Below are positions 35,013-56,062 of a stretch of 64,000 nt of DNA, piece by piece; the first letter of the stretch is position 1, and every line of letters begins with the position of its first letter. Made by a program: the position numbers and the translations under genes. The stretch comes from Escherichia coli. GTDB lineage: Bacteria > Pseudomonadota > Gammaproteobacteria > Enterobacterales > Enterobacteriaceae. The stretch is from NCBI RefSeq assembly GCF_016026235.1, contig NZ_CP065613.1, one strand, 5' to 3'. Below the pieces are notes generated by a model, which worked only from the letters and a program-made list of their open reading frames with translations, was not told the origin of the DNA and made no database searches.

Positions 35013-35245
35013 ATTTATCTTCACCTCATCAATCTGCCATTTTTGCTGTATCTGATTTTCTATATTATCTTAATTCAATCGCTTCAGACTTTTCGCAATC
35101 GCCGTAATATTTCCCCATTTTGTTGTAAATAAAAAGCGTTTACGCAATGCAATCCTTTTGTAACAACCCAGGTAAAACACCTTATTTTCAAGTTGTTAAA
35201 TAAGTGGTTATCTACGCTTTTAACAAACGATTGATGGAATATTTT

Positions 35246-35301
35246 ATGAAAGGGAAATCTGCATTAACTCTTCTGCTCGCTGGTATATTTTCGTGCGGCA
35301 C
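35246..35301 (+). pseudogene. 5' fragment (18 codons) of an ORF with a signal-peptide-like N-terminus, cut by the IS1 left end
   Basis: ATG at 35246 gives MKGKSALTLLLAGIFSCG..., then the IS1 inverted repeat begins at 35302; identity not recognised. Confidence 0.3.
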
Positions 35302-35356
35302 GGTGATGCTGCCAACTTACTGATTTAGTGTATGATGGTGTTTTTGAGGTGCTCCA

Positions 35357-35632
35357 GTGGCTTCTGTTTCTATCAGCTGTCCCTCCTGTTCAGCTACTGA
35401 CGGGGTGGTGCGTAACGGCAAAAGCACCGCCGGACATCAGCGCTATCTCTGCTCTCACTGCCGTAAAACATGGCAACTGCAGTTCACTTACACCGCTTCT
35501 CAACCCGGTACGCACCAGAAAATCATTGATATGGCCATGAATGGCGTTGGATGCCGGGCAACTGCCCGCATTATGGGCGTTGGCCTCAACACGATTTTAC
35601 GTCACTTAAAAAACTCAGGCCGCAGTCGGTAA
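35357..35632 (+). CDS. insA: IS1 InsA, 91 aa
   Basis: Protein [43 protein letters not shown]... is the IS1 InsA sequence. Confidence 0.9.
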
Positions 35633-36054
35633 CCTCGCGCATACAGCCGGGCAGTGACGTCATCGTCTGCGCGGAAATGGACGAACAGTGGGGCTATGTC
35701 GGGGCTAAATCGCGCCAGCGCTGGCTGTTTTACGCGTATGACAGTCTCCGGAAGACGGTTGTTGCGCACGTATTCGGTGAACGCACTATGGCGACGCTGG
35801 GGCGTCTTATGAGCCTGCTGTCACCCTTTGACGTGGTGATATGGATGACGGATGGCTGGCCGCTGTATGAATCCCGCCTGAAGGGAAAGCTGCACGTAAT
35901 CAGCAAGCGATATACGCAGCGAATTGAGCGGCATAACCTGAATCTGAGGCAGCACCTGGCACGGCTGGGACGGAAGTCGCTGTCGTTCTCAAAATCGGTG
36001 GAGCTGCATGACAAAGTCATCGGGCATTATCTGAACATAAAACACTATCAATAA
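35551..36054 (+). CDS. insB: IS1 InsB reading frame (expressed as InsAB' by frameshifting)
   Basis: 167-aa ORF overlapping insA, typical IS1 organisation. Confidence 0.85.
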
Positions 36055-36069
36055 GTTGGAGTCATTACC

Positions 36070-36248
36070 CGTCGGGTCAATGTCAATGGTGGCGCGATCG
36101 CACTCGGTCACCCGATAGGCGCTTCCGGTTGCCGAATCCTGGTTTCTCTGGTTCATGAAATGGTGAAACGTAATGCCCGCAAAGGGCTGGCAACGCTTTG
36201 TATCGGCGGGGGCCAGGGCGTGGCATTGACCATTGAACGTGACGAGTA
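36070..36248 (+). pseudogene. yqeF: 3' remnant (about 59 codons) of a thiolase gene, truncated by IS1
   Basis: In-frame C-terminus ...[54 protein letters not shown] is a thiolase tail; sits upstream of kduI as yqeF does in K-12. Confidence 0.7.
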
Positions 36249-36405
36249 GCTCTGCATTTCCTCCTTACCGATAAATATCTGCCGTCATTAATCTGTTGAA
36301 TAATGATGGCTGGCAAGTCGACATTCATTTTCTGGGCTCCCTCATTTTTCCATTCTCATGACATATTCGTGATCGACACTGCACTTTTTTTAATCCTTAA
36401 CTTAA

Positions 36406-36426
36406 AAATGAAACATTGTTTTATTT
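36406..36426. promoter_or_regulatory. KdgR-operator-like palindrome upstream of kduI
   Basis: AAATGAAACATTGTTTTATTT resembles the KdgR box AATGAAACAnTGTTTCATT. Confidence 0.35.
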
Positions 36427-36473
36427 TTAATTGAAAACCCTAGCCCATGGGCATATCATCCCTTTATAGAGAA

Positions 36474-36491
36474 AACGAAACAGTGTTTCAC
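36474..36491. promoter_or_regulatory. Second KdgR-like palindrome upstream of kduI
   Basis: AACGAAACAGTGTTTCAC, inverted repeat GAAACA-N-TGTTTC, about 45 bp upstream of the kduI GTG start. Confidence 0.35.
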
Positions 36492-36535
36492 TATCGTTTT
36501 CTATTTTCACGCTTCACTGATTATCGGAGGTTGAT

Positions 36536-37372
36536 GTGGACGTAAGACAGAGCATCCACAGTGCGCACGCAAAAACGCTGGATACCCAAGGGCTGCGCAA
36601 TGAATTTTTGGTTGAAAAGGTATTTGTCGCCGATGAGTACACCATGGTTTACAGCCACATTGACCGAATTATTGTTGGCGGCATTATGCCGATAACTAAA
36701 ACGGTTTCCGTTGGCGGGGAAGTTGGTAAACAACTCGGCGTAAGCTATTTCCTTGAACGTCGCGAGTTAGGTGTTATCAATATTGGCGGTGCCGGTACGA
36801 TTACTGTCGATGGCCAATGCTATGAAATCGGTCACCGCGACGCCCTGTATGTTGGTAAAGGTGCAAAAGAAGTTGTCTTTGCCAGTATTGATACCGCCAC
36901 TCCGGCAAAGTTTTATTACAATTGCGCACCCGCGCATACGACGTATCCCACCAAAAAAGTCACACCGGACGAAGTATCTCCAGTCACGTTAGGCGATAAC
37001 CTCACCAGTAACCGTCGCACAATTAACAAATATTTTGTCCCGGATGTGCTGGAAACCTGCCAATTGAGTATGGGGCTGACGGAGCTGGCTCCAGGTAACT
37101 TGTGGAACACCATGCCGTGTCACACTCACGAGCGCCGGATGGAAGTTTATTTCTATTTCAATATGGATGATGACGCCTGCGTTTTCCACATGATGGGGCA
37201 GCCGCAAGAAACGCGTCACATTGTGATGCATAACGAGCAGGCGGTGATCTCCCCGAGCTGGTCGATTCATTCCGGCGTCGGAACCAAAGCTTATACCTTT
37301 ATCTGGGGCATGGTCGGTGAAAACCAGGTCTTTGATGATATGGACCATGTGGCCGTTAAAGATTTGCGCTAG
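36536..37372 (+). CDS. kduI: 5-dehydro-4-deoxy-D-glucuronate isomerase, 278 aa (GTG start)
   Basis: [24 protein letters not shown]... matches KduI. Confidence 0.95.
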
Positions 37373-37401
37373 TTGTGGGCATAAACGAATAAGGTATTGT
37401 T

Positions 37402-38163
37402 ATGATTTTAAGTGCATTTTCTCTCGAAGGTAAAGTTGCGGTCGTCACTGGCTGTGATACTGGGCTGGGCCAGGGGATGGCGTTGGGGCTGGCGCAAGCG
37501 GGCTGTGACATTGTTGGCATTAACATCGTTGAACCTACTGAAACCATCAAGCAGGTCACGGCGCTGGGGCGTCGTTTTTTAAGCCTGACCGCCGATCTGC
37601 GAAAGATTGATGGTATTCCAGCACTGCTGGATCGCGCGGTAGCGGAGTTTGGTCATATTGATATCCTGGTGAATAACGCCGGATTGATTCGCCGCGAAGA
37701 TGCTCTCGAGTTCAGCGAAAAGGACTGGGACGATGTCATGAACCTGAATATCAAGAGCGTATTCTTCATGTCTCAGGCAGCGGCGAAACACTTTATCGCG
37801 CAAGGCAATGGCGGCAAGATTATCAATATCGCGTCAATGCTCTCCTTCCAGGGCGGGATCCGTGTGCCTTCTTATACCGCATCAAAAAGCGGCGTGATGG
37901 GTGTGACGCGATTGATGGCGAACGAATGGGCTAAACACAACATTAATGTTAATGCGATAGCTCCGGGTTACATGGCGACCAACAATACTCAACAACTACG
38001 GGCAGATGAACAACGTAGCGCGGAAATTCTCGACCGCATTCCAGCTGGTCGTTGGGGACTGCCGAGTGACCTGATGGGGCCGATAGTGTTCCTTGCCTCC
38101 AACGCTTCAGATTATGTGAATGGTTATACCATTGCCGTGGATGGCGGTTGGCTGGCGCGTTAA
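37402..38163 (+). CDS. kduD: 2-dehydro-3-deoxy-D-gluconate 5-dehydrogenase (SDR family), 253 aa
   Basis: SDR glycine motif TGCDTGLG and YxxxK active-site motif (YTASK); synteny. Confidence 0.95.
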   Translation: MILSAFSLEGKVAVVTGCDTGLGQGMALGLAQAGCDIVGINIVEPTETIKQVTALGRRFLSLTADLRKIDGIPALLDRAVAEFGHIDILVNNAGLIRREDALEFSEKDWDDVMNLNIKSVFFMSQAAAKHFIAQGNGGKIINIASMLSFQGGIRVPSYTASKSGVMGVTRLMANEWAKHNINVNAIAPGYMATNNTQQLRADEQRSAEILDRIPAGRWGLPSDLMGPIVFLASNASDYVNGYTIAVDGGWLAR

Positions 38164-38185
38164 TTCATTCTTCTTACTTTTATGA

Positions 38186-38209
38186 CCCTGCCGCATGGCA
38201 GGGTTTTTT
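38186..38209 (+). terminator. Rho-independent terminator after kduD
   Basis: Hairpin CCCTGCC-GCAT-GGCAGGG followed by TTTTTT. Confidence 0.6.
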
Positions 38210-38477
38210 ATACCTGTAGATCATCATAATCCATATCATGGTTATGAAATAATCCATATTAATTATCAATCAATGAACTTTATGAATTTTATCTGCTGTA
38301 AAATTAGGTGGTTAATAATAATCTCAATAATTCAACTTATTTTGAAAATTGGAATATCCATCACATAACGACATGTCGCAGCAATTTAATCCATATTTAT
38401 GCTGTTTCCGACCTGACACCTGCGTGAGTTGTTCACGTATTTTTTCACTATGTCTTACTCTCTGCTGGCAGGAAAAA

Positions 38478-39896
38478 ATGGTTACTATCAATACGGAATC
38501 TGCTTTAACGCCACGTTCTTTGCGGGATACGCGGCGTATGAATATGTTTGTTTCGGTAGCTGCTGCGGTCGCAGGATTGTTATTTGGTCTTGATATCGGC
38601 GTAATCGCCGGAGCGTTGCCGTTCATTACCGATCACTTTGTGCTGACCAGTCGTTTGCAGGAATGGGTGGTTAGTAGCATGATGCTCGGCGCAGCAATTG
38701 GTGCGCTGTTTAATGGTTGGCTGTCGTTCCGCCTGGGGCGTAAATACAGCCTGATGGCGGGGGCCATCCTGTTTGTACTCGGTTCTATAGGGTCCGCTTT
38801 TGCGACCAGCGTAGAGATGTTAATCGCCGCTCGTGTGGTGCTGGGCATTGCTGTCGGGATCGCGTCTTACACCGCTCCTCTGTATCTTTCTGAAATGGCA
38901 AGTGAAAACGTTCGCGGTAAGATGATCAGTATGTACCAGTTGATGGTCACACTCGGCATCGTGCTGGCGTTTTTATCTGATACAGCGTTCAGTTATAGCG
39001 GTAACTGGCGCGCAATGTTGGGGGTTCTTGCTTTACCAGCAGTTCTGCTGATTATTCTGGTGGTCTTCCTGCCAAATAGCCCGCGCTGGCTGGCGGAAAA
39101 GGGGCGTCATATTGAGGCGGAAGAAGTATTGCGTATGCTGCGTGATACGTCGGAAAAAGCGCGAGAAGAACTCAACGAAATTCGTGAAAGCCTGAAGTTA
39201 AAACAGGGCGGTTGGGCACTGTTTAAGATCAACCGTAACGTCCGTCGTGCTGTGTTTCTCGGTATGTTGTTGCAGGCGATGCAGCAGTTTACCGGTATGA
39301 ACATCATCATGTACTACGCGCCGCGTATCTTCAAAATGGCGGGCTTTACGACCACAGAACAACAGATGATTGCGACTCTGGTCGTAGGGCTGACCTTTAT
39401 GTTCGCCACCTTTATTGCGGTGTTTACGGTAGATAAAGCAGGGCGTAAACCGGCTCTGAAAATTGGTTTCAGCGTGATGGCGTTAGGCACTCTGGTGCTG
39501 GGCTATTGCCTGATGCAGTTTGATAACGGTACGGCTTCCAGTGGCTTGTCCTGGCTCTCTGTTGGCATGACGATGATGTGTATTGCCGGTTATGCGATGA
39601 GCGCCGCGCCAGTGGTGTGGATCCTGTGCTCTGAAATTCAGCCGCTGAAATGCCGCGATTTCGGTATTACCTGTTCGACCACCACGAACTGGGTGTCGAA
39701 TATGATCATCGGCGCGACCTTCCTGACGCTGCTCGACAGCATTGGCGCTGCCGGTACGTTCTGGCTCTACACTGCGCTGAACATTGCGTTTGTGGGCATC
39801 ACTTTCTGGCTCATTCCGGAAACCAAAAATGTCACGCTGGAACATATCGAACGCAAACTGATGGCAGGCGAGAAGTTGAGAAATATCGGCATCTGA
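38478..39896 (+). CDS. araE: Arabinose:H+ symporter (MFS), 472 aa; start [10 protein letters not shown] inside the longer track ORF
   Basis: Sequence matches AraE; sugar-porter motifs. Confidence 0.95.
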
Positions 39897-39902
39897 TTTC
39901 AC

Positions 39903-39935
39903 GGGCCGGATGTGCTGTACATCCGGCCCTTTTTT
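39903..39935 (+). terminator. Rho-independent terminator after araE
   Basis: GGGCCGGATG-TGCTGTAC-ATCCGGCCC hairpin followed by TTTTTT. Confidence 0.7.
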
Positions 39936-40024
39936 CGTTAATAGAGATTGGGCACTTGGCCGTTGAGGCGTTTGTCTCGTTCCTTATTCAGCCTTGTTGC
40001 GGTAACACACATCAGGAGAGAGGA

Positions 40025-40717
40025 ATGAAAACAATTGGTTTGCTGGGAGGAATGAGCTGGGAATCCACCATTCCTTACTATCGTTTGATAAATGAAGGCA
40101 TTAAACAGCGGCTTGGTGGGCTTCACTCTGCGCAAGTGCTGCTACATAGCGTCGATTTTCATGAAATAGAAGAGTGCCAGCGTCGCGGGGAATGGGATAA
40201 AACTGGGGACATTCTGGCTGAGGCGGCGCTTGGCTTACAGCGGGCGGGCGCAGAAGGTATTGTGTTATGTACCAATACGATGCATAAAGTGGCGGATGCC
40301 ATTGAGTCACGTTGCACTCTGCCTTTCTTACACATTGCGGATGCCACCGGACGTGCAATTACCGGGGCCGGAATGACTCGTGTGGCGCTGCTGGGTACGC
40401 GTTACACCATGGAACAGGATTTTTATCGCGGGCGGCTGACGGAACAATTTTCCATCAATTGTCTTATTCCTGAAGCGGATGAACGGGCGAAAATTAATCA
40501 GATTATTTTTGAAGAACTGTGTCTGGGGCAATTTACCGAAGCGTCACGCGCTTATTATGCGCAAGTGATTGCTCGCCTTGCAGAACAGGGCGCACAGGGC
40601 GTCATTTTTGGCTGCACAGAAATTGGTTTACTGGTGCCAGAAGAGCGCAGTGTTTTGCCTGTGTTTGATACTGCGGCGATCCATGCCGAGGATGCTGTCG
40701 CTTTTATGCTGTCGTAG
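40025..40717 (+). CDS. ygeA: Asp/Glu racemase-family protein, 230 aa
   Basis: [24 protein letters not shown]...; size and synteny. Confidence 0.9.
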
Positions 40718-41639
40718 CTGACGACAAAATAGCGTCAAGAGAAGTGACCAGTTTCGGTAACCCCGCTTGTAAATGCCCACTAAACGCCTGAACCAGCGCT
40801 GATGACGGGCGGTGCAGGGGGCGGATCAGGCTGACGGTGAACGGAACCGCAATACTGAACCGCCGCACCACTAAACCGCTTGCCGCATAATCTAGTGCGG
40901 TGAGCGGGTTAACCACCGAAACACCTACCCCCGCCCGTACCATTGCGCAGACTGACGCGGCGCTGTGGGTTTCTACGATCATGCGTCGTTTAACCTGATG
41001 TTCAGTAAATAGCTGATCCAGCAACTGGCGATAGCTGTCAGTACGGGAAAGGCTGATGTAGTTCTCACCCTGAAAATCATCCGGCGTTAATACCTTTTTT
41101 ACCGCCAGCGGATGACCCGGAGGTAACACACACACTTCATCTAAAGAGAGTAATTCGGTACGTTCTGTTCCCGCAGGCGTATGGAGCGTTTCAGTGAGTC
41201 CTAAATCATGACGCTGGGCCGAGAGCCACTCTTCAAGTAGCGGTGATTCCTGGGGCACGATATTTAAGCTGACATCGGGATAACGTGCCAGAAAGGGTTG
41301 CAGGAGCTGCGGTAAAAAAGATTGCGAAAAGACCGGCAGGCAGGCAATAGACAGTTCTCCCTGGCGAAACTCGCGCAGACTTTCTGCGGCGCTGACAATG
41401 CGATCCAGTCCGTACCAGGATCGTTGCACTTCTTCAAACAGACGCAGTCCTTGCACGGTAGGATGTAATCGTCCACGTACGCGCTCAAACAATTTCAGCC
41501 CGATCACCTTCTCAAAGCGCGCAAGTTCGCGGCTGACGGTTGGCTGTGAGGTGTGTAGCAGGTGTGCCGCCTCAGTCAGGCTTCCGGCGGTCATTACCGC
41601 ATGAAAAATTTCAATATGACGTAAGTTAACGGCGGCCAT
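40704..41639 (-). CDS. lysR: LysR-type transcriptional activator of lysA, 311 aa
   Basis: N-terminal HTH ([23 protein letters not shown]); divergent from lysA. Confidence 0.95.
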
Positions 41640-41760
41640 TAGCGCTCTCTCGCAATCCGGTAATCCATATCATTTTTGCATAGACTCGACATAAATCGAT
41701 ATTTTTTATTCTTTTTATGATGTGGCGTAATCATAAAAAAGCACTTATCTGGAGTTTGTT

Positions 41761-43023
41761 ATGCCACATTCACTGTTCAGCACCGATACCGATCTCACCG
41801 CCGAAAATCTGCTGCGTTTGCCCGCTGAATTTGGCTGCCCGGTGTGGGTCTACGATGCGCAAATTATTCGTCGGCAGATTGCAGCGCTGAAACAGTTTGA
41901 TGTGGTGCGCTTTGCACAGAAAGCCTGTTCCAATATTCATATTTTGCGATTAATGCGTGAGCAGGGCGTGAAAGTGGATTCCGTCTCGTTAGGCGAAATA
42001 GAGCGTGCGTTGGCGGCGGGTTACAATCCGCAAACGCACCCCGATGATATTGTTTTTACGGCAGATGTTATCGATCAGGCGACGCTTGAACGCGTCAGTG
42101 AATTGCAAATTCCGGTGAATGCGGGTTCTGTTGATATGCTCGACCAACTGGGCCAGGTTTCGCCAGGGCATCGGGTATGGCTGCGCGTTAACCCGGGGTT
42201 TGGTCACGGACATAGCCAAAAAACCAATACCGGTGGCGAAAACAGCAAGCACGGTATCTGGTACACCGATCTGCCCGCCGCACTGGACGTGATACAACGT
42301 CATCATCTGCAGCTGGTCGGCATTCACATGCACATTGGTTCTGGCGTTGATTATGCCCATCTGGAACAGGTGTGTGGTGCTATGGTGCGTCAGGTCATCG
42401 AATTCGGTCAGGATTTACAGGCTATTTCTGCGGGCGGTGGGCTTTCTGTTCCTTATCAACAGGGTGAAGAGGCGGTTGATACCGAACATTATTATGGTCT
42501 GTGGAATGCCGCGCGTGAGCAAATCGCCCGCCATTTGGGCCACCCTGTGAAACTGGAAATTGAACCGGGTCGCTTCCTGGTAGCGCAGTCTGGCGTATTA
42601 ATTACTCAGGTGCGGAGCGTCAAACAAATGGGGAGCCGCCACTTTGTGCTGGTTGATGCCGGGTTCAACGATCTGATGCGCCCGGCAATGTACGGTAGTT
42701 ACCACCATATCAGTGCCCTGGCAGCTGATGGTCGTTCTCTGGAACACGCGCCAACGGTGGAAACCGTCGTCGCCGGACCGTTATGTGAATCGGGCGATGT
42801 CTTTACCCAGCAGGAAGGGGGAAATGTTGAAACCCGCGCCTTGCCGGAAGTGAAGGCAGGTGATTATCTGGTACTGCATGATACAGGGGCATATGGCGCA
42901 TCAATGTCATCCAACTACAACAGCCGTCCGCTGTTACCAGAAGTTCTGTTTGATAATGGTCAGGCGCGGTTGATTCGCCGTCGCCAGACCATCGAAGAAT
43001 TACTGGCGCTGGAATTGCTTTAA
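41761..43023 (+). CDS. lysA: Diaminopimelate decarboxylase, 420 aa
   Basis: Sequence and size match LysA; adjacent divergent lysR. Confidence 0.95.
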   Translation: MPHSLFSTDTDLTAENLLRLPAEFGCPVWVYDAQIIRRQIAALKQFDVVRFAQKACSNIHILRLMREQGVKVDSVSLGEIERALAAGYNPQTHPDDIVFTADVIDQATLERVSELQIPVNAGSVDMLDQLGQVSPGHRVWLRVNPGFGHGHSQKTNTGGENSKHGIWYTDLPAALDVIQRHHLQLVGIHMHIGSGVDYAHLEQVCGAMVRQVIEFGQDLQAISAGGGLSVPYQQGEEAVDTEHYYGLWNAAREQIARHLGHPVKLEIEPGRFLVAQSGVLITQVRSVKQMGSRHFVLVDAGFNDLMRPAMYGSYHHISALAADGRSLEHAPTVETVVAGPLCESGDVFTQQEGGNVETRALPEVKAGDYLVLHDTGAYGASMSSNYNSRPLLPEVLFDNGQARLIRRRQTIEELLALELL

Positions 43024-43029
43024 CTGCGG

Positions 43030-44061
43030 TTAGTCGCTGGTTGCATGATGACTTGCCTCCAGCGACGGAGTTGACACTGAATGACGACGTACCAGCGTCG
43101 GACTAAAGACATTAGTGATTTCCGGGAGAGGGCGATTATCCGCCAGCGCCAAAGCCAGTTCGGCAGCCTGGGTCGCCATCGTCACGATTGGGTAACGCAC
43201 GGTGGTCAGGCGCGGACGCACATAGCGTGACACCAGCACATCATCAAAGCCAATTAACGAAATCTCACCCGGTACATCAATACCATTATCATTGAGAACG
43301 CCCATCGCACCCGCCGCCATTGAATCGTTATAACAGGCTACCGCAGTGAAATTTCTTCCTCGTCCCAAAAGCTCGGTCATTGCCTGTTCGCCGCCGCTTT
43401 CGTCTGGTTCGCCAAATGTCACCAGCCGGTCATTGGCCGCAATACCACTTTCAGCAAGGGCATCGTAATACCCTTGCAGACGATCTTCGGCGTCAGAAAT
43501 AGAGTGGTTAGAGCACAGATAACCAATGCGGGTATGACCTTGCTGAATTAAATGACGCGTTGCCAGCCAGGCACCGTAACGATCGTCAAGAGCAATACAA
43601 CGGTTTTCAAAGCCAGGCAGGATACGGTTGATCAGCACCATACCGGGCATTTGTTTCATTAATGAGGCTAAATCGGCATCCGGGATCATTTTGGCATGGA
43701 CGACCAACGCAGCACAGCGATGGCGGATCAGTTGCTCAATAGCCTGACGCTCTTTTTGTTCGTTGTGGTAACCGTTGCCAATCAATAAGAAATTACCGGT
43801 GTGATAAGCCACCTGTTCGACCGCTTTCACCATTGCACCGAAAAACGGATCGGAAACATCACCAACGATCAGACCGACCGTTTCAGTGGTCTGCTGCGCC
43901 AGCGCACGGGCGTTGGCGTTCGGGTGATAGCTAAGAGACTCCATTGCACTATGCACAGCCAGCCGGGAAGCTTCGCTGGCTTTGGGTGAATTATTAATGA
44001 CGCGGGAAACGGTGGCGACTGAAACGCCTGCCAGTCGGGCTACATCCTTTATGGTCGCCAT
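43030..44061 (-). CDS. galR: Galactose repressor (LacI family), 343 aa
   Basis: MATIKDVARLAGVSVATVSRVINNSPKASEASR... LacI-type HTH; matches GalR. Confidence 0.95.
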   Translation of the reverse strand: MATIKDVARLAGVSVATVSRVINNSPKASEASRLAVHSAMESLSYHPNANARALAQQTTETVGLIVGDVSDPFFGAMVKAVEQVAYHTGNFLLIGNGYHNEQKERQAIEQLIRHRCAALVVHAKMIPDADLASLMKQMPGMVLINRILPGFENRCIALDDRYGAWLATRHLIQQGHTRIGYLCSNHSISDAEDRLQGYYDALAESGIAANDRLVTFGEPDESGGEQAMTELLGRGRNFTAVACYNDSMAAGAMGVLNDNGIDVPGEISLIGFDDVLVSRYVRPRLTTVRYPIVTMATQAAELALALADNRPLPEITNVFSPTLVRRHSVSTPSLEASHHATSD

Positions 44062-44274
44062 GAAAATACCTTAGTGGGTAAACGCTTACATTCTTTCAGT
44101 GTTACGGAAAACGCCCGTTGGTTCAAGGGGTGGCGTGTTTTCATCGTGGGAATGTGAGCCAAACGCAAATAAGTAAGACAAAAAAAGAGATTGCAAACCT
44201 TTGGTTACACTTTGCGAAACGCTGTTGCGATTGACCGCTGGTGGCGTTTGGCTTCAGGTTGCTAAAGTGGTGAT

Positions 44275-44357
44275 CCCAGAGGTATTGATAGGTGAAGTCA
44301 ACTTCGGGTTGAGCACATGAATTACACCAGCCTGCGCAGATGCGCAGGTTTTTTTTT
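44275..44357 (+). ncRNA. omrB: OmrA/OmrB-family small RNA, copy 1 (probably OmrB by length)
   Basis: Starts CCCAGAGGTATTGATAGGTGA (conserved Omr 5' end), ends in hairpin CCTGCGCAGATGCGCAGG plus T9; lies between galR and aas. Confidence 0.8.
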
Positions 44358-44471
44358 GCCGGTCATCAATCTGTAACAGTAACCGACAATTTACACACCT
44401 CGTTGCATTTCCCTTCATTCCTTTGCGTTTTCTCGCTGGCGAAGAGTCGTCGTGCAGACCACAATCAAGAT

Positions 44472-44559
44472 CCCAGAGGTATTGATTGGTGAGATTATTC
44501 GGTACGCTCTTCGTACCCTGTCTCTTGCACCAACCTGCGCGGATGCGCAGGTTTTTTTT
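44472..44559 (+). ncRNA. omrA: OmrA/OmrB-family small RNA, copy 2 (probably OmrA by length)
   Basis: Starts CCCAGAGGTATTGATTGGTGA, ends in hairpin CCTGCGCGGATGCGCAGG plus T8; shares 5' and 3' ends with copy 1 but differs in the middle. Confidence 0.8.
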
Positions 44560-44625
44560 CGCACCTAATTTACTGTCGCTCGCGTTCTTTATCTCGTGTA
44601 ATCTCCCTCCATTCGCTTTTACTGA

Positions 44626-47992
<3,367 letters not shown>

Positions 47993-47997
47993 TATTT

Positions 47998-48019
47998 AAC
48001 GCCGGTTTGAACCGGCGTT
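47998..48019. terminator. Bidirectional hairpin between convergent lplT and tas
   Basis: AACGCCGGTT-TG-AACCGGCGTT palindrome between the two stop codons. Confidence 0.5.
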
Positions 48020-48023
48020 AATC

Positions 48024-49064
48024 TTATGGTGCAGGATAAGTATAAACCTGATGCACCGCTTCAATTTCAGCTAAAACTTCTTCGCTCAACTCCAGATGCA
48101 AACTTTCGACGTTAGTTTTCAGCTGCTCCATCGTGGTTGCGCCCAGCAGAGTGCTGGCAACAAACGGTTGACGGCGTACAAAAGCGAGCGCCAGCTGAGC
48201 AGGATCCAGCCCATGACGTCTGGCAATATCAACATACGCCGCGACGGCTTTTTGCGTTTGCTCACCGCTATAGCGGGTGAACCGACTAAAGAGCGTATTA
48301 CGTGCGCCAGCGGGTTTTGCACCGTTGAGATATTTCCCGGTCAGCGTGCCGAAACCCAGGCACGAATAGGCCAGCAGTTCGACCCCTTCATACTGGCTGA
48401 CTTCTGCCAGACCTACTTCAAAACTGCGGTTTAACAGACTGTAAGGGTTCTGAATGGTGACAATACGCGGCAGATCGTGTTTGTCCGCCAGATGCAGGTA
48501 GCGCATTACGCCAAATGCAGTTTCGTTCGACACGCCGATATAACGAATTTTTCCCGCTCGTTGGTACTCTGCCAGTGCGTCCAGCGTATCCAGCAGCGAA
48601 ACCGCAGGCGCAGAATCTGTCCAGCTATAACCGAGTTTGCCGAAGCAGTTGGTTGGGCGCTGCGGCCAGTGCACCTGATAAAGATCGAGGTAATCAGTCT
48701 GCAGACGCTTGAGGCTGTCATGCAACGCTTCGCGGATATTCTTCCGATCCAGCGCCTGATCCGGGCGGATGCCCTTGTCATTATTGCGCGACGGTCCGCT
48801 CACTTTGGAGGCGATAATTAACTTTTCGCGGCTGCCATGTTTCGCCAGCCAGTTGCCGACGTAGGTTTCGGTTAACCCTTGCGTTTCGGGGCGCGGAGGT
48901 ACTGGGTACATTTCGGCAACGTCGATAAGGTTAATGCCCTGAGCGACGGCATAGTCGAGTTGTGCGTGGGCGTCGGCTTCGCTGTTCTGTTCACCAAACG
49001 TCATCGTGCCAAGCCCCAGCGTGCTGACTTCCAGCGAACTGTGGGGTATACGGTGATATTGCAT
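48024..49064 (-). CDS. tas: Aldo-keto reductase, 346 aa (start MQYHRIPHSSL)
   Basis: Matches Tas; the track ORF extends artificially upstream into IS4. Confidence 0.9.
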   Translation of the reverse strand: MQYHRIPHSSLEVSTLGLGTMTFGEQNSEADAHAQLDYAVAQGINLIDVAEMYPVPPRPETQGLTETYVGNWLAKHGSREKLIIASKVSGPSRNNDKGIRPDQALDRKNIREALHDSLKRLQTDYLDLYQVHWPQRPTNCFGKLGYSWTDSAPAVSLLDTLDALAEYQRAGKIRYIGVSNETAFGVMRYLHLADKHDLPRIVTIQNPYSLLNRSFEVGLAEVSQYEGVELLAYSCLGFGTLTGKYLNGAKPAGARNTLFSRFTRYSGEQTQKAVAAYVDIARRHGLDPAQLALAFVRRQPFVASTLLGATTMEQLKTNVESLHLELSEEVLAEIEAVHQVYTYPAP

Positions 49065-49148
49065 AGCCGTTTCCTTTTTATAATCACGACATAAGGAATA
49101 TAAAAATGGCAGAGGGAAGGGAAAAGGGAAAGAGAAAAATCTTAAGGC

Positions 49149-49161
49149 CAGCCGGATGCTG
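49149..49161. repeat. IS4 target-site duplication, left copy (CAGCCGGATGCTG)
   Basis: 13-bp direct repeat flanking IS4, identical to 50588..50600. Confidence 0.7.
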
Positions 49162-50587
49162 TAATGCCAGTCAGTTAAGCAACTGACTGGCTCTTTTTCG
49201 GGGCTGTGGGGTATTTCCAGGGCCTCTCCTTTACCACTCTCGGGAAGGCCCTTCCCCTTCTCGTCGGTAATTTCACAAGTTGTCCCATACTTGCAAGATC
49301 GCGCATCAGCTCCGGTATACGTCCCGGTGAAGCGCCCTGCAATGTCATCAGCATTCTCATCACCATTCCGCATGATTCTGAGAAACTCAGTTGATTCGGC
49401 CAGTAACCTTTCAGATGTTCCGCCATTTTAATCATCTGATATCTCACCAGATTATAAGCCAGTAAGACACCCCACAGCTCTTGCTCCACAAGCTCCGGCT
49501 TTTTACTTCTCAGCGTCAGCCTGCTCAGTTGCATCGTCTGTTTTATCTCCCTGTATCCCAGTTCGATTTCCCAGCGATGACTGTACAGATCCGCCATTTC
49601 TCCTCCGGGGAAGCGCATGGCGTCCGTCATCGACGTCAGCAGATGGCAGACTTTTCCTTTGCGCGTCACGGTCAGCAGGCGGGCTGTCACTTCATTTCCC
49701 AGTCCCGGCCACTTTTTTCGTGCCTGCGGGCTGGTTTTCAGCTTCACCAGATGATCGCCTTTACCCAGTTTTCTGAGCTCTTCATATTGCGCTCCCTTTC
49801 TGAGAGGTATCATCCAGTGGCGGTGTTCTCCCGCCAGGCTCCAGGCATTTAACAGTCCCAGTGAGTAATAACCTTTATCCATTAACGTCAGAGTGTTATC
49901 GCCGGTTTGTTCTATAAGTTGCTCAGCAAGCTCATTTTCGCTGTTCTTCATCGTGCCGAAGGCTGCAGCCGTCAGCAGATGGCTGGTCAGTTCCATCTGG
50001 CAGACCATTTTGACCTGCGGGTAGAGCGCCGGGTTCCCGGCATGTGTCTGGCGGGGGAAGGCTGCATCGTTCTCTGGTGTATCCGGTGTGCGCCAGAACA
50101 CACCATCGATGGCCAGCAGGGTCAGGCCGCACCAGTGCGGATGCGGCGTGGCGTTATGCCAGAGCTGCGCTGTTTTCGTGAACACGCGGCGGACAGCCTC
50201 ACTTCCCAGGCGCTGGCGGGCCTGAATAACGGCACTGGGGGCAACGAAGGGGCGATTGCCCGGCAGCATGATGTCCAGGCGATTCACAATCTGGTGAAGA
50301 GGTTCTTTACGCTCAAGCGCCATGCCAACAATACACCAGACCATCATTTCGAGGGGAAGACGGCGCTTGCGTAGCGTTACAGTACCTGATTCGGCAAGGC
50401 AACGAGAGATGAGTTCGGGGTCGAGGTAATCCCCCAGAGAAGTCAGTGGGTTACGCAGAGAATCGTAACGGGATACCAGATCAAGAGCCTGTCCAATGTG
50501 CATAAAAAAATCCGGAAACAAGTGAGCGTTTCCGGATTCTTACACAGCCACTGGATCGGTCAACTGATCCTTAACTGATCGGCATTA
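49162..50587 (-). mobile_element. IS4 (1426 bp)
   Basis: Terminal inverted repeats TAATGCCAGTCAGTTAAG (left) and CTTAACTGATCGGCATTA (right); encodes the IS4 transposase; flanked by a 13-bp direct repeat. Confidence 0.9.
49175..50503 (-). CDS. insG: IS4 transposase InsG, 442 aa (start [10 protein letters not shown])
   Basis: Sequence recognised as IS4 InsG. Confidence 0.9.
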
Positions 50588-50600
50588 CAGCCGGATGCTG
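50588..50600. repeat. IS4 target-site duplication, right copy (CAGCCGGATGCTG)
   Basis: Identical to 49149..49161. Confidence 0.7.
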
Positions 50601-50610
50601 ACCTTATTTG

Positions 50611-50829
50611 TTAACGTTCAATAATTTGCGAAACATCATCACGGTTAATTTGCATCGCGTTACCTTGCTGATCGTGATAACTCACCAGCCCGGTATCATC
50701 ATCAATTTCAGGTTTTCCATCGGTCAAAATCATACGGCCATCTTTGGTCGCCATGACGTAATCACTGGAACACCCGGAAACAGCAAACGCCAGTCCGACT
50801 GCAGAAATTATTACTGCCCATTTTTTCAT
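50611..50829 (-). CDS. ygdR: Small lipoprotein, 72 aa
   Basis: [23 protein letters not shown]... lipobox; synteny. Confidence 0.85.
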
Positions 50830-50966
50830 CCGGTTATCCTCATTTGGCCCACCTATGATAATAGTCTGTTTATAAACTGACGTTATATATCTTGAAAGCA
50901 GGAAAATCTTAAACTGTGAGGGTAACAGGAGTGAGTACGCCCTCCCGCAGGAGAGCGTACGGAGTA

Positions 50967-51680
50967 TCAGAGCGGGTTCTTTTTGTTGCGAATCAGGTTG
51001 AGGCTTTCAACCGCAATAGAGAAGAACATCGCGAAGTAGATGTAACCTTTCGGTACGTGGATGTCGAAACTTTCCAGAATCAGGGTAAAGCCCACCAGAA
51101 TCAGGAAAGAGAGCGCCAGCATTTTTACCGAAGGATGGCGTTCGACAAAATCACCAATCGAGCGCGCGGCGAACATCATCACGCCTACGGCAATCACCAC
51201 GGCTGCCATCATAATAAACAGGTGATCTGACAGACCCACAGCGGTAATCACCGAGTCGAGGCTGAAGATAATATCCAGTAGCATAATCTGCACGATAGCG
51301 CCGAGGAATGATGAAACGCGTGTTTTCAGCCCTTCTTCTTCACCTTCAATGGATTCGTGGATTTCCTTGCTGGCTTTCCAGATAAGGAACAAGCCACCCA
51401 GAAGCAGAATCAAATCACGGGCAGAAATTTCCTGACTGAATATTGTAAAAAGCGGATTTGTCAGGCGCGTAACCCAGGCGATTGATGCCAGCAGCGCCAG
51501 ACGCATAACCATGGCTCCCGCCAACCCCAGACGGCGCGCATGAGCACGTTGTGCTGTGGGAAGCTTTGCCACCACCAGAGAAAGGAAAATAATATTGTCG
51601 ATCCCAAGAACGATCTCCAGCAGCGTCAGCGTACCGAGCGCAAGCCAGGCGTTAGGATCGGTTATCCATGCAAATAACAT
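50967..51680 (-). CDS. ygdQ: TerC-family inner-membrane protein, 237 aa
   Basis: Hydrophobic profile; synteny. Confidence 0.9.
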
Positions 51681-51748
51681 CTAAAAAGCCCTGCCAAAAA
51701 AATGAAGCGGTAATTATATGCCCGGAAAGCGGCAGGTCAAAGCGATGG

Positions 51749-52438
51749 CTACTGGATCAGAAAATGACGGGCCAGCAGCGCACTGGTGAAATTTTTCTTC
51801 AAATAAAAGCCGCGCGGCAGCGTCAGAATCCGTTCGCCCCGGGCACCAATGGCTTCGGTAAGCGCTTTCGCATTCGCTGCTTTCGGTCGTATCTGTAAAT
51901 ACTCCCCGTGACGAGCGGTAATCCGCTCAACCTGACCGAGAACAATCATATCCATTAATTCTTCCCAGTCTTCGCGTAGCTGCCGGTCTTCCTCTTCATT
52001 CGGGCTCCACAGCAACGGTGATCCTACGCGACGCTGCGCCAGCGGGATGCTGCGCTCGCCTTCAACCGGTATCCACAGTACGCGTTTGAGTTTGTGGCGC
52101 ACGTGGCTGGTTTCCCAGGTCACCCCGCTATTGCCCGTTAACGGGGCAACACAAACGAATGTTGTTTCCAGCGGACGACCAAGACTATCCACAGGGATAG
52201 TTTTAAGTTCCACGCCCAGAGCAGCAAAATCTTGCTCAGGTTTACTCCCTGCGCTGGCACCTAGCCAGATCTCCAGTAACACGCCAATCCAGCCCTTATC
52301 GCGTTTTAAATTCTCTGGCGTAACCAGCCCGGCAAGTGCCGCCAGTTCTCCCAATGTATAACCAGAAAGTTGCTGTGCTTGCGCTAACAACTGTTCTTCA
52401 GTTTCGGGAGGAGAGAGCAGTGGGCGAGGTTGGGACAT
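51749..52438 (-). CDS. mutH: Methyl-directed mismatch repair endonuclease, 229 aa
   Basis: Sequence and size match MutH. Confidence 0.95.
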
Positions 52439-52623
52439 GTCATGATACCTTGGTTAAAAAACAAACAGCAATTATGTGCCGAATATTCGCAGTGTAACTT
52501 TTTCCACATGCGTTGTTCAATTCTCTGATTTATATTGCTTTTTAGGTTACCGGTAATCGAGTTGCGCAACACTGCAACGGGTTTTCCAAATCTGGTCACT
52601 GAAAATAAACAGGATCTTACACC

Positions 52624-52770
52624 ATGTTATCCACAGAAAGCTGGGATAACTGTGAAAAACCTCCACTACTGTTTCCATTTACAGCCTTGACGTGCGACGA
52701 AACTCCAGTTTTTAGTGGTTCAGTGCTTAACTTAGTGGCACATTCTGTGGATAAATACGGCATTGGTTGA
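52624..52770 (+). CDS. ygdT: Small ORF, 48 aa (MLSTESWDNCEKPPLLFPFTALTCDETPVFSGSVLNLVAHSVDKYGIG), possibly ygdT; below the ORF-track size cutoff
   Basis: ATG-to-TGA ORF in the mutH-rppH interval where K-12 has a small ygdT; no functional evidence. Confidence 0.45.
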   Translation: MLSTESWDNCEKPPLLFPFTALTCDETPVFSGSVLNLVAHSVDKYGIG

Positions 52771-53122
52771 TCTTTCGCCAACCCGTAAATGAGAGGTGTG
52801 ACCTGGGTCACGAATTACTCTTTTTCATTACTCAAATTACATGTAATGCATTGACTAATAATGAATATTTTAAAATGTCTATATCGGGATTATTCAGAAT
52901 GCTCCGGGTTTTCCCGTAGTAATTCCGTAGTTCTTCACAACTCTATCCACAGAAAAGGTGAATAAAAACGGCTATCCACCCCTTCCTCTGTTTATAACTC
53001 TGCACATAACTGTGAGTTATTCAATTGTTATTAGTGTGTAATGCCCTGCAGAGAGTGGTTTACCGTCTTCCTGGAGTATGAAACAATCATTCGTATATAA
53101 AGCTTTATATTGAGGTAGTCCG

Positions 53123-53653
53123 GTGATTGATGACGATGGCTACCGCCCAAACGTAGGTATCGTGATTTGTAATCGCCAGGGGCAGGTAATGTGGGCCCGG
53201 CGATTTGGTCAGCACTCCTGGCAATTTCCGCAAGGCGGAATTAACCCCGGAGAATCCGCAGAGCAGGCGATGTACCGTGAATTGTTTGAAGAAGTAGGAT
53301 TAAGCCGCAAAGACGTTCGAATCCTTGCTTCAACGCGTAACTGGTTGCGCTACAAATTACCGAAACGTTTGGTGCGTTGGGACACGAAGCCGGTTTGTAT
53401 CGGCCAAAAACAAAAATGGTTTCTCTTGCAGCTGGTGAGCGGCGATGCAGAAATCAATATGCAAACCAGCAGTACACCAGAGTTTGACGGCTGGCGATGG
53501 GTAAGTTACTGGTATCCGGTCAGACAGGTGGTGTCATTTAAACGTGATGTCTACCGTAGGGTAATGAAAGAGTTCGCGAGTGTGGTGATGTCACTGCAGG
53601 AAAATACGCCAAAACCACAAAACGCATCTGCTTATCGACGTAAAAGAGGTTAA
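53123..53653 (+). CDS. rppH: RNA pyrophosphohydrolase (Nudix), 176 aa, GTG start
   Basis: Nudix box [22 protein letters not shown]. Confidence 0.95.
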
Positions 53654-53665
53654 GTCACGCCAATT

Positions 53666-55912
53666 ATGCTCACTCGCCTGCGCGAAATAGTCGAAAAGGT
53701 AGCCAGCGCACCACGCCTGAATGAGGCGTTAAATATTCTGGTTACCGACATCTGTCTTGCGATGGATACCGAGGTCTGTTCGGTCTACCTGGCCGATCAT
53801 GATCGACGTTGTTACTACCTGATGGCGACCCGGGGGCTGAAAAAACCACGCGGTCGCACTGTAACGCTTGCGTTTGATGAAGGGATCGTCGGCCTGGTTG
53901 GCAGGCTGGCGGAACCGATAAACCTTGCAGATGCGCAAAAGCACCCCAGCTTCAAATACATCCCCTCCGTAAAAGAAGAGCGTTTCCGCGCGTTTTTAGG
54001 CGTACCAATTATTCAACGTCGCCAGTTGCTTGGTGTACTGGTGGTACAGCAACGAGAGTTGCGCCAGTATGACGAAAGTGAAGAATCCTTCCTGGTGACG
54101 CTTGCCACCCAGATGGCAGCGATTCTTTCTCAGTCGCAGTTGACTGCCTTGTTTGGGCAATATCGCCAGACGCGAATCCGCGCATTACCGGCAGCACCTG
54201 GTGTGGCGATTGCCGAAGGCTGGCAGGATGCCACGTTACCTTTAATGGAACAGGTGTATCAGGCATCAACGCTGGATCCGGCTCTGGAACGCGAACGACT
54301 GACCGGGGCGCTGGAAGAAGCGGCAAACGAGTTTCGCCGCTACAGCAAACGCTTTGCCGCCGGTGCACAAAAAGAAACGGCGGCTATTTTCGATCTTTAC
54401 TCGCACCTGCTTTCGGACACCCGGCTGCGTCGCGAATTGTTTGCCGAGGTTGATAAAGGCTCGGTGGCAGAGTGGGCGGTAAAAACGGTCATTGAAAAAT
54501 TTGCCGAACAGTTTGCCGCGCTAAGCGATAACTATCTCAAAGAGCGCGCTGGCGATTTACGTGCGCTGGGTCAGCGATTGCTGTTTCATCTTGATGACGC
54601 TAATCAAGGGCCGAACGCCTGGCCGGAACGTTTCATTCTGGTGGCAGATGAACTGTCAGCGACAACTCTTGCTGAGCTGCCCCAGGATCGCTTAGTGGGT
54701 GTTGTCGTGCGAGATGGCGCAGCCAACTCCCATGCTGCGATCATGGTACGTGCGCTGGGGATCCCTACCGTGATGGGCGCGGATATTCAGCCTTCGGTGC
54801 TGCATCGTAGGACGCTGATCGTTGATGGCTATCGCGGTGAATTGCTGGTCGATCCGGAGCCGGTACTGCTGCAAGAATATCAGCGGCTAATTAGTGAAGA
54901 GATTGAGCTTAGCCGTCTGGCGGAAGATGACGTCAATTTACCCGCGCAGTTAAAAAGCGGTGAGCGTATAAAAGTCATGCTCAATGCTGGTTTAAGCCCG
55001 GAACATGAAGAAAAACTGGGCAGCCGTATTGATGGCATCGGTCTTTATCGCACTGAAATCCCATTCATGCTGCAAAGTGGTTTCCCGTCGGAAGAAGAAC
55101 AGGTGGCGCAGTATCAGGGGATGCTGCAAATGTTCAATGATAACCCCGTCACCTTGCGTACGCTGGATGTCGGAGCAGATAAGCAGCTGCCTTACATGCC
55201 GATCAGCGAAGAGAATCCATGCCTGGGTTGGCGTGGGATTCGCATTACGCTCGATCAGCCGGAGATCTTCTTGATCCAGGTGCGGGCGATGCTGCGTGCT
55301 AATGCCGCTACGGGCAACCTGAATATTCTGTTGCCGATGGTCACCAGCCTCGATGAAGTTGATGAAGCACGCCGCCTGATTGAACGTGCCGGACGTGAAG
55401 TCGAGGAGATGATCGGTTACGAAATTCCCAAACCACGTATCGGCATCATGCTGGAAGTGCCGTCAATGGTATTTATGCTGCCGCATCTGGCAAAGCGGGT
55501 CGATTTCATCTCTGTTGGCACCAACGATCTGACTCAATACATTCTGGCCGTTGATCGCAACAATACCCGGGTGGCGAACATTTATGACAGTCTTCATCCT
55601 GCAATGTTACGAGCTCTGGCGATGATCGCCCGGGAAGCGGAAATACATGGTATCGATCTCCGTTTGTGCGGTGAAATGGCGGGCGATCCCATGTGCGTGG
55701 CAATCCTCATTGGGCTTGGGTATCGCCATCTGTCTATGAACGGACGTTCTGTAGCGCGGGTAAAATACCTGCTGCGGCGCATTGATTTTGCCGAAGCAGA
55801 AAATCTTGCGCAGCGTAGTCTGGAAGCGCAACTGGCGACCGAAGTTCGTCATCAGGTTGCAGCCTTTATGGAGCGTCGTGGCATGGGCGGGCTGATTCGC
55901 GGAGGGTTATAG
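53666..55912 (+). CDS. ptsP: PTS enzyme I-Ntr (GAF domain plus EI), 748 aa
   Basis: Size and synteny downstream of rppH. Confidence 0.95.
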   Translation: MLTRLREIVEKVASAPRLNEALNILVTDICLAMDTEVCSVYLADHDRRCYYLMATRGLKKPRGRTVTLAFDEGIVGLVGRLAEPINLADAQKHPSFKYIPSVKEERFRAFLGVPIIQRRQLLGVLVVQQRELRQYDESEESFLVTLATQMAAILSQSQLTALFGQYRQTRIRALPAAPGVAIAEGWQDATLPLMEQVYQASTLDPALERERLTGALEEAANEFRRYSKRFAAGAQKETAAIFDLYSHLLSDTRLRRELFAEVDKGSVAEWAVKTVIEKFAEQFAALSDNYLKERAGDLRALGQRLLFHLDDANQGPNAWPERFILVADELSATTLAELPQDRLVGVVVRDGAANSHAAIMVRALGIPTVMGADIQPSVLHRRTLIVDGYRGELLVDPEPVLLQEYQRLISEEIELSRLAEDDVNLPAQLKSGERIKVMLNAGLSPEHEEKLGSRIDGIGLYRTEIPFMLQSGFPSEEEQVAQYQGMLQMFNDNPVTLRTLDVGADKQLPYMPISEENPCLGWRGIRITLDQPEIFLIQVRAMLRANAATGNLNILLPMVTSLDEVDEARRLIERAGREVEEMIGYEIPKPRIGIMLEVPSMVFMLPHLAKRVDFISVGTNDLTQYILAVDRNNTRVANIYDSLHPAMLRALAMIAREAEIHGIDLRLCGEMAGDPMCVAILIGLGYRHLSMNGRSVARVKYLLRRIDFAEAENLAQRSLEAQLATEVRHQVAAFMERRGMGGLIRGGL

Positions 55913-56062
55913 CGCGGATCATATACATATCTTTTAACGGTATCCGGCAACCAGCCAGGTCCCCTTGTGCTATTATTCGCACCTTTGGAGCGCCTGAAAC
56001 CTGCGGCGCGCATTTCAATCGCTGTTCTCTTTCAGCGAAATAACAAGAACTTGTGGTGACAG

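Follow-up and report, generated by a model that had tools for sequence, protein, structure and literature searches.

In a 64,000-nt stretch of Escherichia coli DNA (hereafter the window; contig NZ_CP065613.1 of assembly GCF_016026235.1), an IS1 element followed by the 3′ remnant of yqeF stands upstream of the sugar-acid genes kduI and kduD, which raises the question of whether the control region of these genes has survived and which regulators read it. We report that two palindromes ahead of kduI are, with a probability that we put at roughly 85%, the distal and proximal operators (O1 and O2) of a sigma-70 promoter serving kduI-kduD, recognised by KdgR and lying in a region that in K-12 is also a target of PlaR (YiaJ). 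KdgR operators ahead of kduI have been described before in E. coli K-12 and related bacteria, and the finding is correct but ordinary, mattering little beyond correct annotation. The features discussed here are collected in Table 1.

Table 1. Features around the kduI control region, in window coordinates; mean identity is identity to the window averaged over the alignment of 80 genomes
Feature	Position	Strand	Mean identity	Remarks
IS1 element	35302..36069	+		768 bp; insA 35357-35632, insB' 35551-36054
IS1 left inverted repeat	35302-35324
yqeF 3′ remnant	36070..36249	+		final 59 codons and stop, 180 nt; blastn to MG1655 2984590-2984411
CGTGATC-N7-CA block, candidate CRP site	36368..36383	.	0.75	chosen by conservation; centre at about -90.5
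KdgR box 1 (distal operator O1)	36406..36426	.	0.86	centre 36416, at about -50; abuts -35 hexamer
-35 hexamer TTGAAA	36431..36436	+	1.00	invariant
-10 hexamer TATCAT	36454..36459	+	0.75	TAnnAT conserved
Transcription start, inferred from promoter geometry	36466	+		conserved A, 7 nt past -10 hexamer
KdgR box 2 (proximal operator O2)	36473..36493	.	0.72	core 0.75; centre 36483, at about +18
kduI Shine-Dalgarno GGAGG	36526..36530	+	0.87
kduI	36536..37372	+		278 aa, GTG start, intact
kduD	37402..38163	+		253 aa, intact, 29 bp after kduI

A preliminary description of this DNA had placed the palindromes AAATGAAACATTGTTTTATTT at 36406-36426 and AACGAAACAGTGTTTCAC at 36474-36491, where both indeed read as given, and had proposed that they fit KdgR operators. 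Comparison with the published KdgR consensus AAATGAAACAnTGTTTCATTT, attributed to Rodionov et al. (2000/2004) as quoted in PMC5559549, bears this out: over the 20 specified positions, box 1 has a single mismatch and box 2, taken as 36473-36493, has three. When up to three mismatches are allowed, boxes 1 and 2 are the only matches in the 64 kb of the window (expected count 0.00), and none of 100 dinucleotide-preserving shuffles contains any match; the third-closest site in the window has five mismatches. A search for the core GAAACANTGTTTC that allows one mismatch also finds the two boxes alone (expected 0.22), two or more matches being seen in 3 of 100 shuffles. The palindrome match is confirmed to lie well beyond chance. 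Upstream of the kduI start codon, box 1 lies at a distance of 120 bp and box 2 at 53 bp. A search for a separate KdgR box before kduD found none, the best match there having eight mismatches, which fits control of kduD through the kduI promoter. An extended palindrome with 19-nt arms can be drawn around box 1; we discarded it, as conservation is limited to about 23 bp.

A scan with a KdgR weight matrix, suggested in the preliminary description, leads to the same sites. Our matrix was built only from the kduI-upstream boxes of other genomes and was run on 8-kb loci of MG1655 as well as on the window, where box 1 (28.8) and box 2 (26.1) score highest and the next best site reaches 14.5. The motif is recovered at kdgK and kdgT, which are classical KdgR-repressed targets: the best match in the kdgK locus lies 66-86 bp upstream of kdgK (20.5, against 5.3 for the next best), and that in the kdgT locus 120-140 bp upstream of kdgT (26.8, against 9.8). 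Since a matrix derived from kduI ranks these sites first, the kduI boxes belong, judged by sequence, to the same motif family as the sites before kdgK and kdgT. The KdgR-type sites of E. coli kdgT (AAATAAAACAGCGTTTCAATT) and kdgK (TAATGGAACACTGTTTTAATA) thus have their motif in common with the kduI boxes but differ in arrangement, with one strong site per promoter where kduI has two that bracket the promoter, and the kduI sites are nearer to the consensus. We also looked for the operator of eda P2, for which the best candidate lies inside edd and is weak (matrix score 8.8); nothing there has seven or fewer mismatches to the consensus, and the candidate was dropped.

To follow the region across the Enterobacteriaceae, we aligned the 230 bp upstream of kduI in the window with those of 79 other genomes (80 in total), among them Escherichia, Citrobacter, Enterobacter, Kluyvera, Kosakonia, Lelliottia, Trabulsiella, Siccibacter and others. 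Box 1 is found in all 79 of the other upstream regions; the core of box 2 is found in 69 and is degenerate or shifted in 10. Of the 69 genomes with both boxes, 64 have them at a centre-to-centre distance of 67-68 bp. Conservation over the 80 genomes falls in discrete blocks (Table 1), and the other 153 positions have a mean identity of 0.38. We left out of the kduI comparison one chimeric contig (L006, 1-560) that carries a Deltaproteobacteria MAG label: it encodes a KduI with 100% identity to that of the window, and its DNA upstream of base 541 is unrelated, indicating an assembly chimera or contamination. Seven genomes (L018, L019, L021, L040, L047, L066 and L073), from Citrobacter, Trabulsiella and some other genera, have a longer yqeF-kduI spacer and carry a third KdgR-like box, TATCAAAACnnTGTTTCATTT, some 340-370 bp before kduI; this box is absent from E. 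coli and from the window.

Between the boxes we find a sigma-70 promoter, TTGAAA-17-TATCAT (36431-36459), which agrees with the consensus at 10 of 12 positions and has a 17-bp spacer; the kduI hexamers listed in a genomic SELEX catalogue of the RNA polymerase (RpoD) holoenzyme are identical (PMC3946193). Box 1 ends 4 bp before the -35 hexamer, and the conserved A at 36466 is likely to be the transcription start. In EMSA, a kduI promoter fragment is bound by CRP-cAMP, and kduI is counted among the genes that CRP activates (PMC8085971). Our candidate for the site behind this shift is the CGTGATC-N7-CA block, in which 36369-36374 and 36382-36383 are nearly invariant among the 80 genomes, the left half GTGATC being kept and, of the right half, only CA. 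The block was picked out because it is conserved, not by a consensus scan: in the window alone, 36368-36383 resembles the CRP consensus TGTGA-N6-TCACA weakly (6/10 matched, 4/10 mismatched), and a scan of the window alone with this consensus singles out no site, as five sites have four mismatches.

Downstream of the promoter, a perfect 9-bp inverted repeat (AGAAAACGA at 36470-36478 and TCGTTTTCT at 36494-36502) encloses box 2, 3 bp off-centre. In the leader RNA it would give a hairpin that folds modestly better than shuffled sequences (z = -2.0). With this z score and a right arm that is unconserved in other genera, we rejected the hairpin as a structured RNA element of the 5′ UTR; a search of the region for Rfam families found none, its sole hit being a chance microRNA (E = 0.51). 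The repeat bears on whether both boxes work as operators. If box 1 were the sole working operator, box 2 would be a weaker auxiliary site or a leader-RNA hairpin, as the wider occurrence of box 1 among the genomes and the place of box 2 in the predicted 5′ UTR, within this repeat, could suggest. Yet the core of box 2 is conserved at 0.75 against a background of 0.38 while the right arm of the outer repeat is not, and its matrix score is far above that of the next non-box site in the window. We consider a single working operator unlikely.

Published expression data speak to the regulators themselves. The preliminary description had pointed to kduI expression in a kdgR mutant as a check, and data from K-12 show derepression of kduI-kduD without kdgR: kduD, there called a known KdgR target, has raised mRNA levels in the kdgR deletion mutant JW1816 as seen by Northern blot (PMC6958661), and loss of kdgR in an evolved strain goes with over-expression of both kduI and kduD (PMC6892915). 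Galacturonate or glucuronate raises the output of a luciferase reporter driven by the kduI promoter 7- to 54-fold (Rothe et al., PMC3578941), and the primers used for this reporter map to 36212-36568, wholly downstream of the IS1 junction. PlaR (YiaJ), an IclR-family paralogue of KdgR, counts kduI among its gSELEX targets, with high-affinity probes confirmed by gel shift (Shimada et al., 2019; PMC6958661). It represses kduID, kduD mRNA rising in a plaR mutant; it recognises ATnTGAAACnnnGTTCAnTT and responds to the effectors galacturonate and ascorbate; yiaK rather than kduI is its strongest target; and the mRNAs of plaR and kdgR each rise when the other gene is deleted (PMC6958661). Both kduI boxes contain the core TGAAAC-N3-GTTT, and PlaR, whose binding has been published for the kduI target as a whole, may use either or both of them. 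The PlaR box of K-12 is almost the same palindrome as the kduI boxes, with a different repressor and different effectors. Our reading of the literature turned up no in vitro footprint for E. coli KdgR at the kduI boxes, and the direct binding data that we found concern PlaR. In the control region of kduI, PlaR and CRP are to be added to KdgR.

These data allow a reading in which the boxes serve mainly as operators for PlaR and the effect of KdgR on kduID is only indirect, for instance via cross-regulation between plaR and kdgR. The SELEX and gel-shift results, the near identity of the PlaR and KdgR boxes, the derepression of kduD on plaR deletion and the mutual rise of the two repressor mRNAs would all agree with it. 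It has to be set against the presence of the motif before kdgK and kdgT as well, the over-expression of kduI and kduD on kdgR loss, and the fit of the boxes, with one and three mismatches, to a KdgR consensus derived from Dickeya. Co-regulation by PlaR is possible; as the sole explanation PlaR is unlikely, and we regard operators that serve chiefly PlaR as distinctly improbable.

Taking the boxes as operators recognised by KdgR, we propose that without inducer a repressor dimer, probably of KdgR, sits on each palindrome. With O1 immediately beside the -35 hexamer and O2 lying over the early part of the transcribed sequence, the bound repressor would keep RNA polymerase from binding or from escaping, presumably by steric hindrance. 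Hexuronate catabolism would then yield an inducer that frees the repressor; for KdgR this may be 2-keto-3-deoxygluconate, as established in Dickeya, and PlaR would be released by galacturonate or ascorbate. After release, CRP-cAMP would activate the promoter, probably at the CGTGATC-N7-CA block near -90. KdgR may share the boxes with PlaR, or be replaced by it under some conditions.

The arrangement of the two sites differs from what is typical of the family. IclR-family tetramers typically use tandem operators with centres 18-22 bp apart (PMC8222616). The kduI promoter resembles these in having two palindromes for one regulator and differs in their layout: the core promoter separates two operator centres that are 67-68 bp from each other, as opposed to a two-turn arrangement. 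At 6.4 helical turns, a spacing of 67 bp does not favour simple in-phase cooperative looping. The constant spacing around the core promoter could reflect a bracketing repression complex rather than two independent roadblocks, with the DNA looped or wrapped by a KdgR tetramer or by KdgR and PlaR mixed. We hold this to be a rather doubtful extension; if true, it would be unlike the usual two-turn tandem sites of IclR-family regulators.

Whether these operators still serve a purpose in this strain depends on what happened upstream. The IS1 copy, with its terminal inverted repeats and its insA and insB' frames reading towards kduI, joins the first 56 nt of ygeQ (35246-35301, codon 19) to the 3′ end of yqeF. 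Its flanks map to MG1655 positions 2998773 and 2984590; the interval 2984591-2998772, about 14.2 kb in K-12 coordinates, is missing, and holds yqeG-yqeK, the ETT2 type III secretion remnant and most of yqeF. The 9-bp target duplication is absent around IS1, which fits a deletion associated with IS1 better than a simple insertion. The IS1/yqeF junction occurs in 0 of 5,426 complete E. coli genomes. IS1 and the yqeF remnant had been described as lying only about 290 bp upstream of kduI, a figure that is right for the spacer between yqeF and kduI (286 bp) but not for the end of IS1, which is separated from box 1 by 336 bp and from the GTG of kduI by 466 bp. The accompanying view that the regulatory region is preserved stands: the 286-bp spacer is that of MG1655 save for one base (36325), outside every conserved block. 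Such preservation is to be expected, all conserved elements lying well downstream of the point where the deletion ends. Just past the yqeF stop codon, at 36281-36310, there is an inverted repeat with 13-nt arms, GCCGTCATTAATC and GAATAATGATGGC; it is poorly conserved, has no T-run and does not count as an intrinsic terminator.

The closest complete genome, FDAARGOS_943, is 100% identical to the window over 36070-56000 save for an IS4-type element that is extra in the window. It is rich in IS elements (ISSfl1, IS1F, IS2, IS3 and IS5) and in pseudogenes, and its yqeF is already one of them. The lineage of the window is, from these sequence comparisons, probably Shigella/EIEC-like and IS-rich. 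In lineages of this kind regulators are often pseudogenes, and kdgR, about 1 Mb away in K-12, is outside the window. The operators might accordingly be relics, with kdgR and/or plaR inactivated and kduID either constitutive or driven by read-through from IS1. The many IS elements and pseudogenes of the closest genome would suit such decay, and read-through would be eased by the direction of insA and insB and by a stretch between IS1/yqeF and kduI in which we found no intrinsic terminator. But decay is not suggested by kduI, kduD and the promoter elements, all of which are intact and match K-12 exactly, and IS1 is known to be strongly polar, which counts against read-through. We find relic operators improbable and presume the regulators to be intact in this strain. 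The kduI control region was spared by the IS1-associated loss of the ETT2 region and of most of yqeF. If kdgR, plaR and crp are intact, kduID should therefore respond to hexuronates as it does in K-12.

We reject the idea that the palindromes arose by chance in an AT-rich, H-NS-bound spacer that no specific regulator reads: the AT-richness of the spacer and its reported association with H-NS (PMC3946193) would suit it, but no shuffle produced a match, conservation is position-specific in many genera while the flanking AT-rich sequence drifts, the motif is common to kdgK and kdgT, and the mutants have phenotypes.

The operators of the pectinolysis and KDG regulon of Dickeya dadantii (Erwinia chrysanthemi) are likewise 21-bp AT-rich palindromes matching the consensus; there, as at kduI, they stand at promoters of KDG-pathway genes, with repression relieved in hexuronate or pectin catabolism, and we see no difference of substance between the two. 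A KdgR regulon was reportedly predicted for E. coli by Rodionov and colleagues in 2000/2004. To our knowledge, E. coli has no pectinase genes and its KdgR regulon is therefore a reduced one, comprising kdgK, kdgT, eda, kduID and few others. The cross-genus footprint provides a compact map of the kduI promoter, running from the CRP-like block through O1, the -35 and -10 hexamers and the start to O2, that could guide reporter design or mutagenesis.

On the far side of IS1, beside the spacer between glyU (tRNA-Gly) and ygeQ, the window contains a 73-bp stretch (35026-35098) that is absent from MG1655; the alignments flanking it overlap by 5 bp, which suggests a small duplication or insertion.
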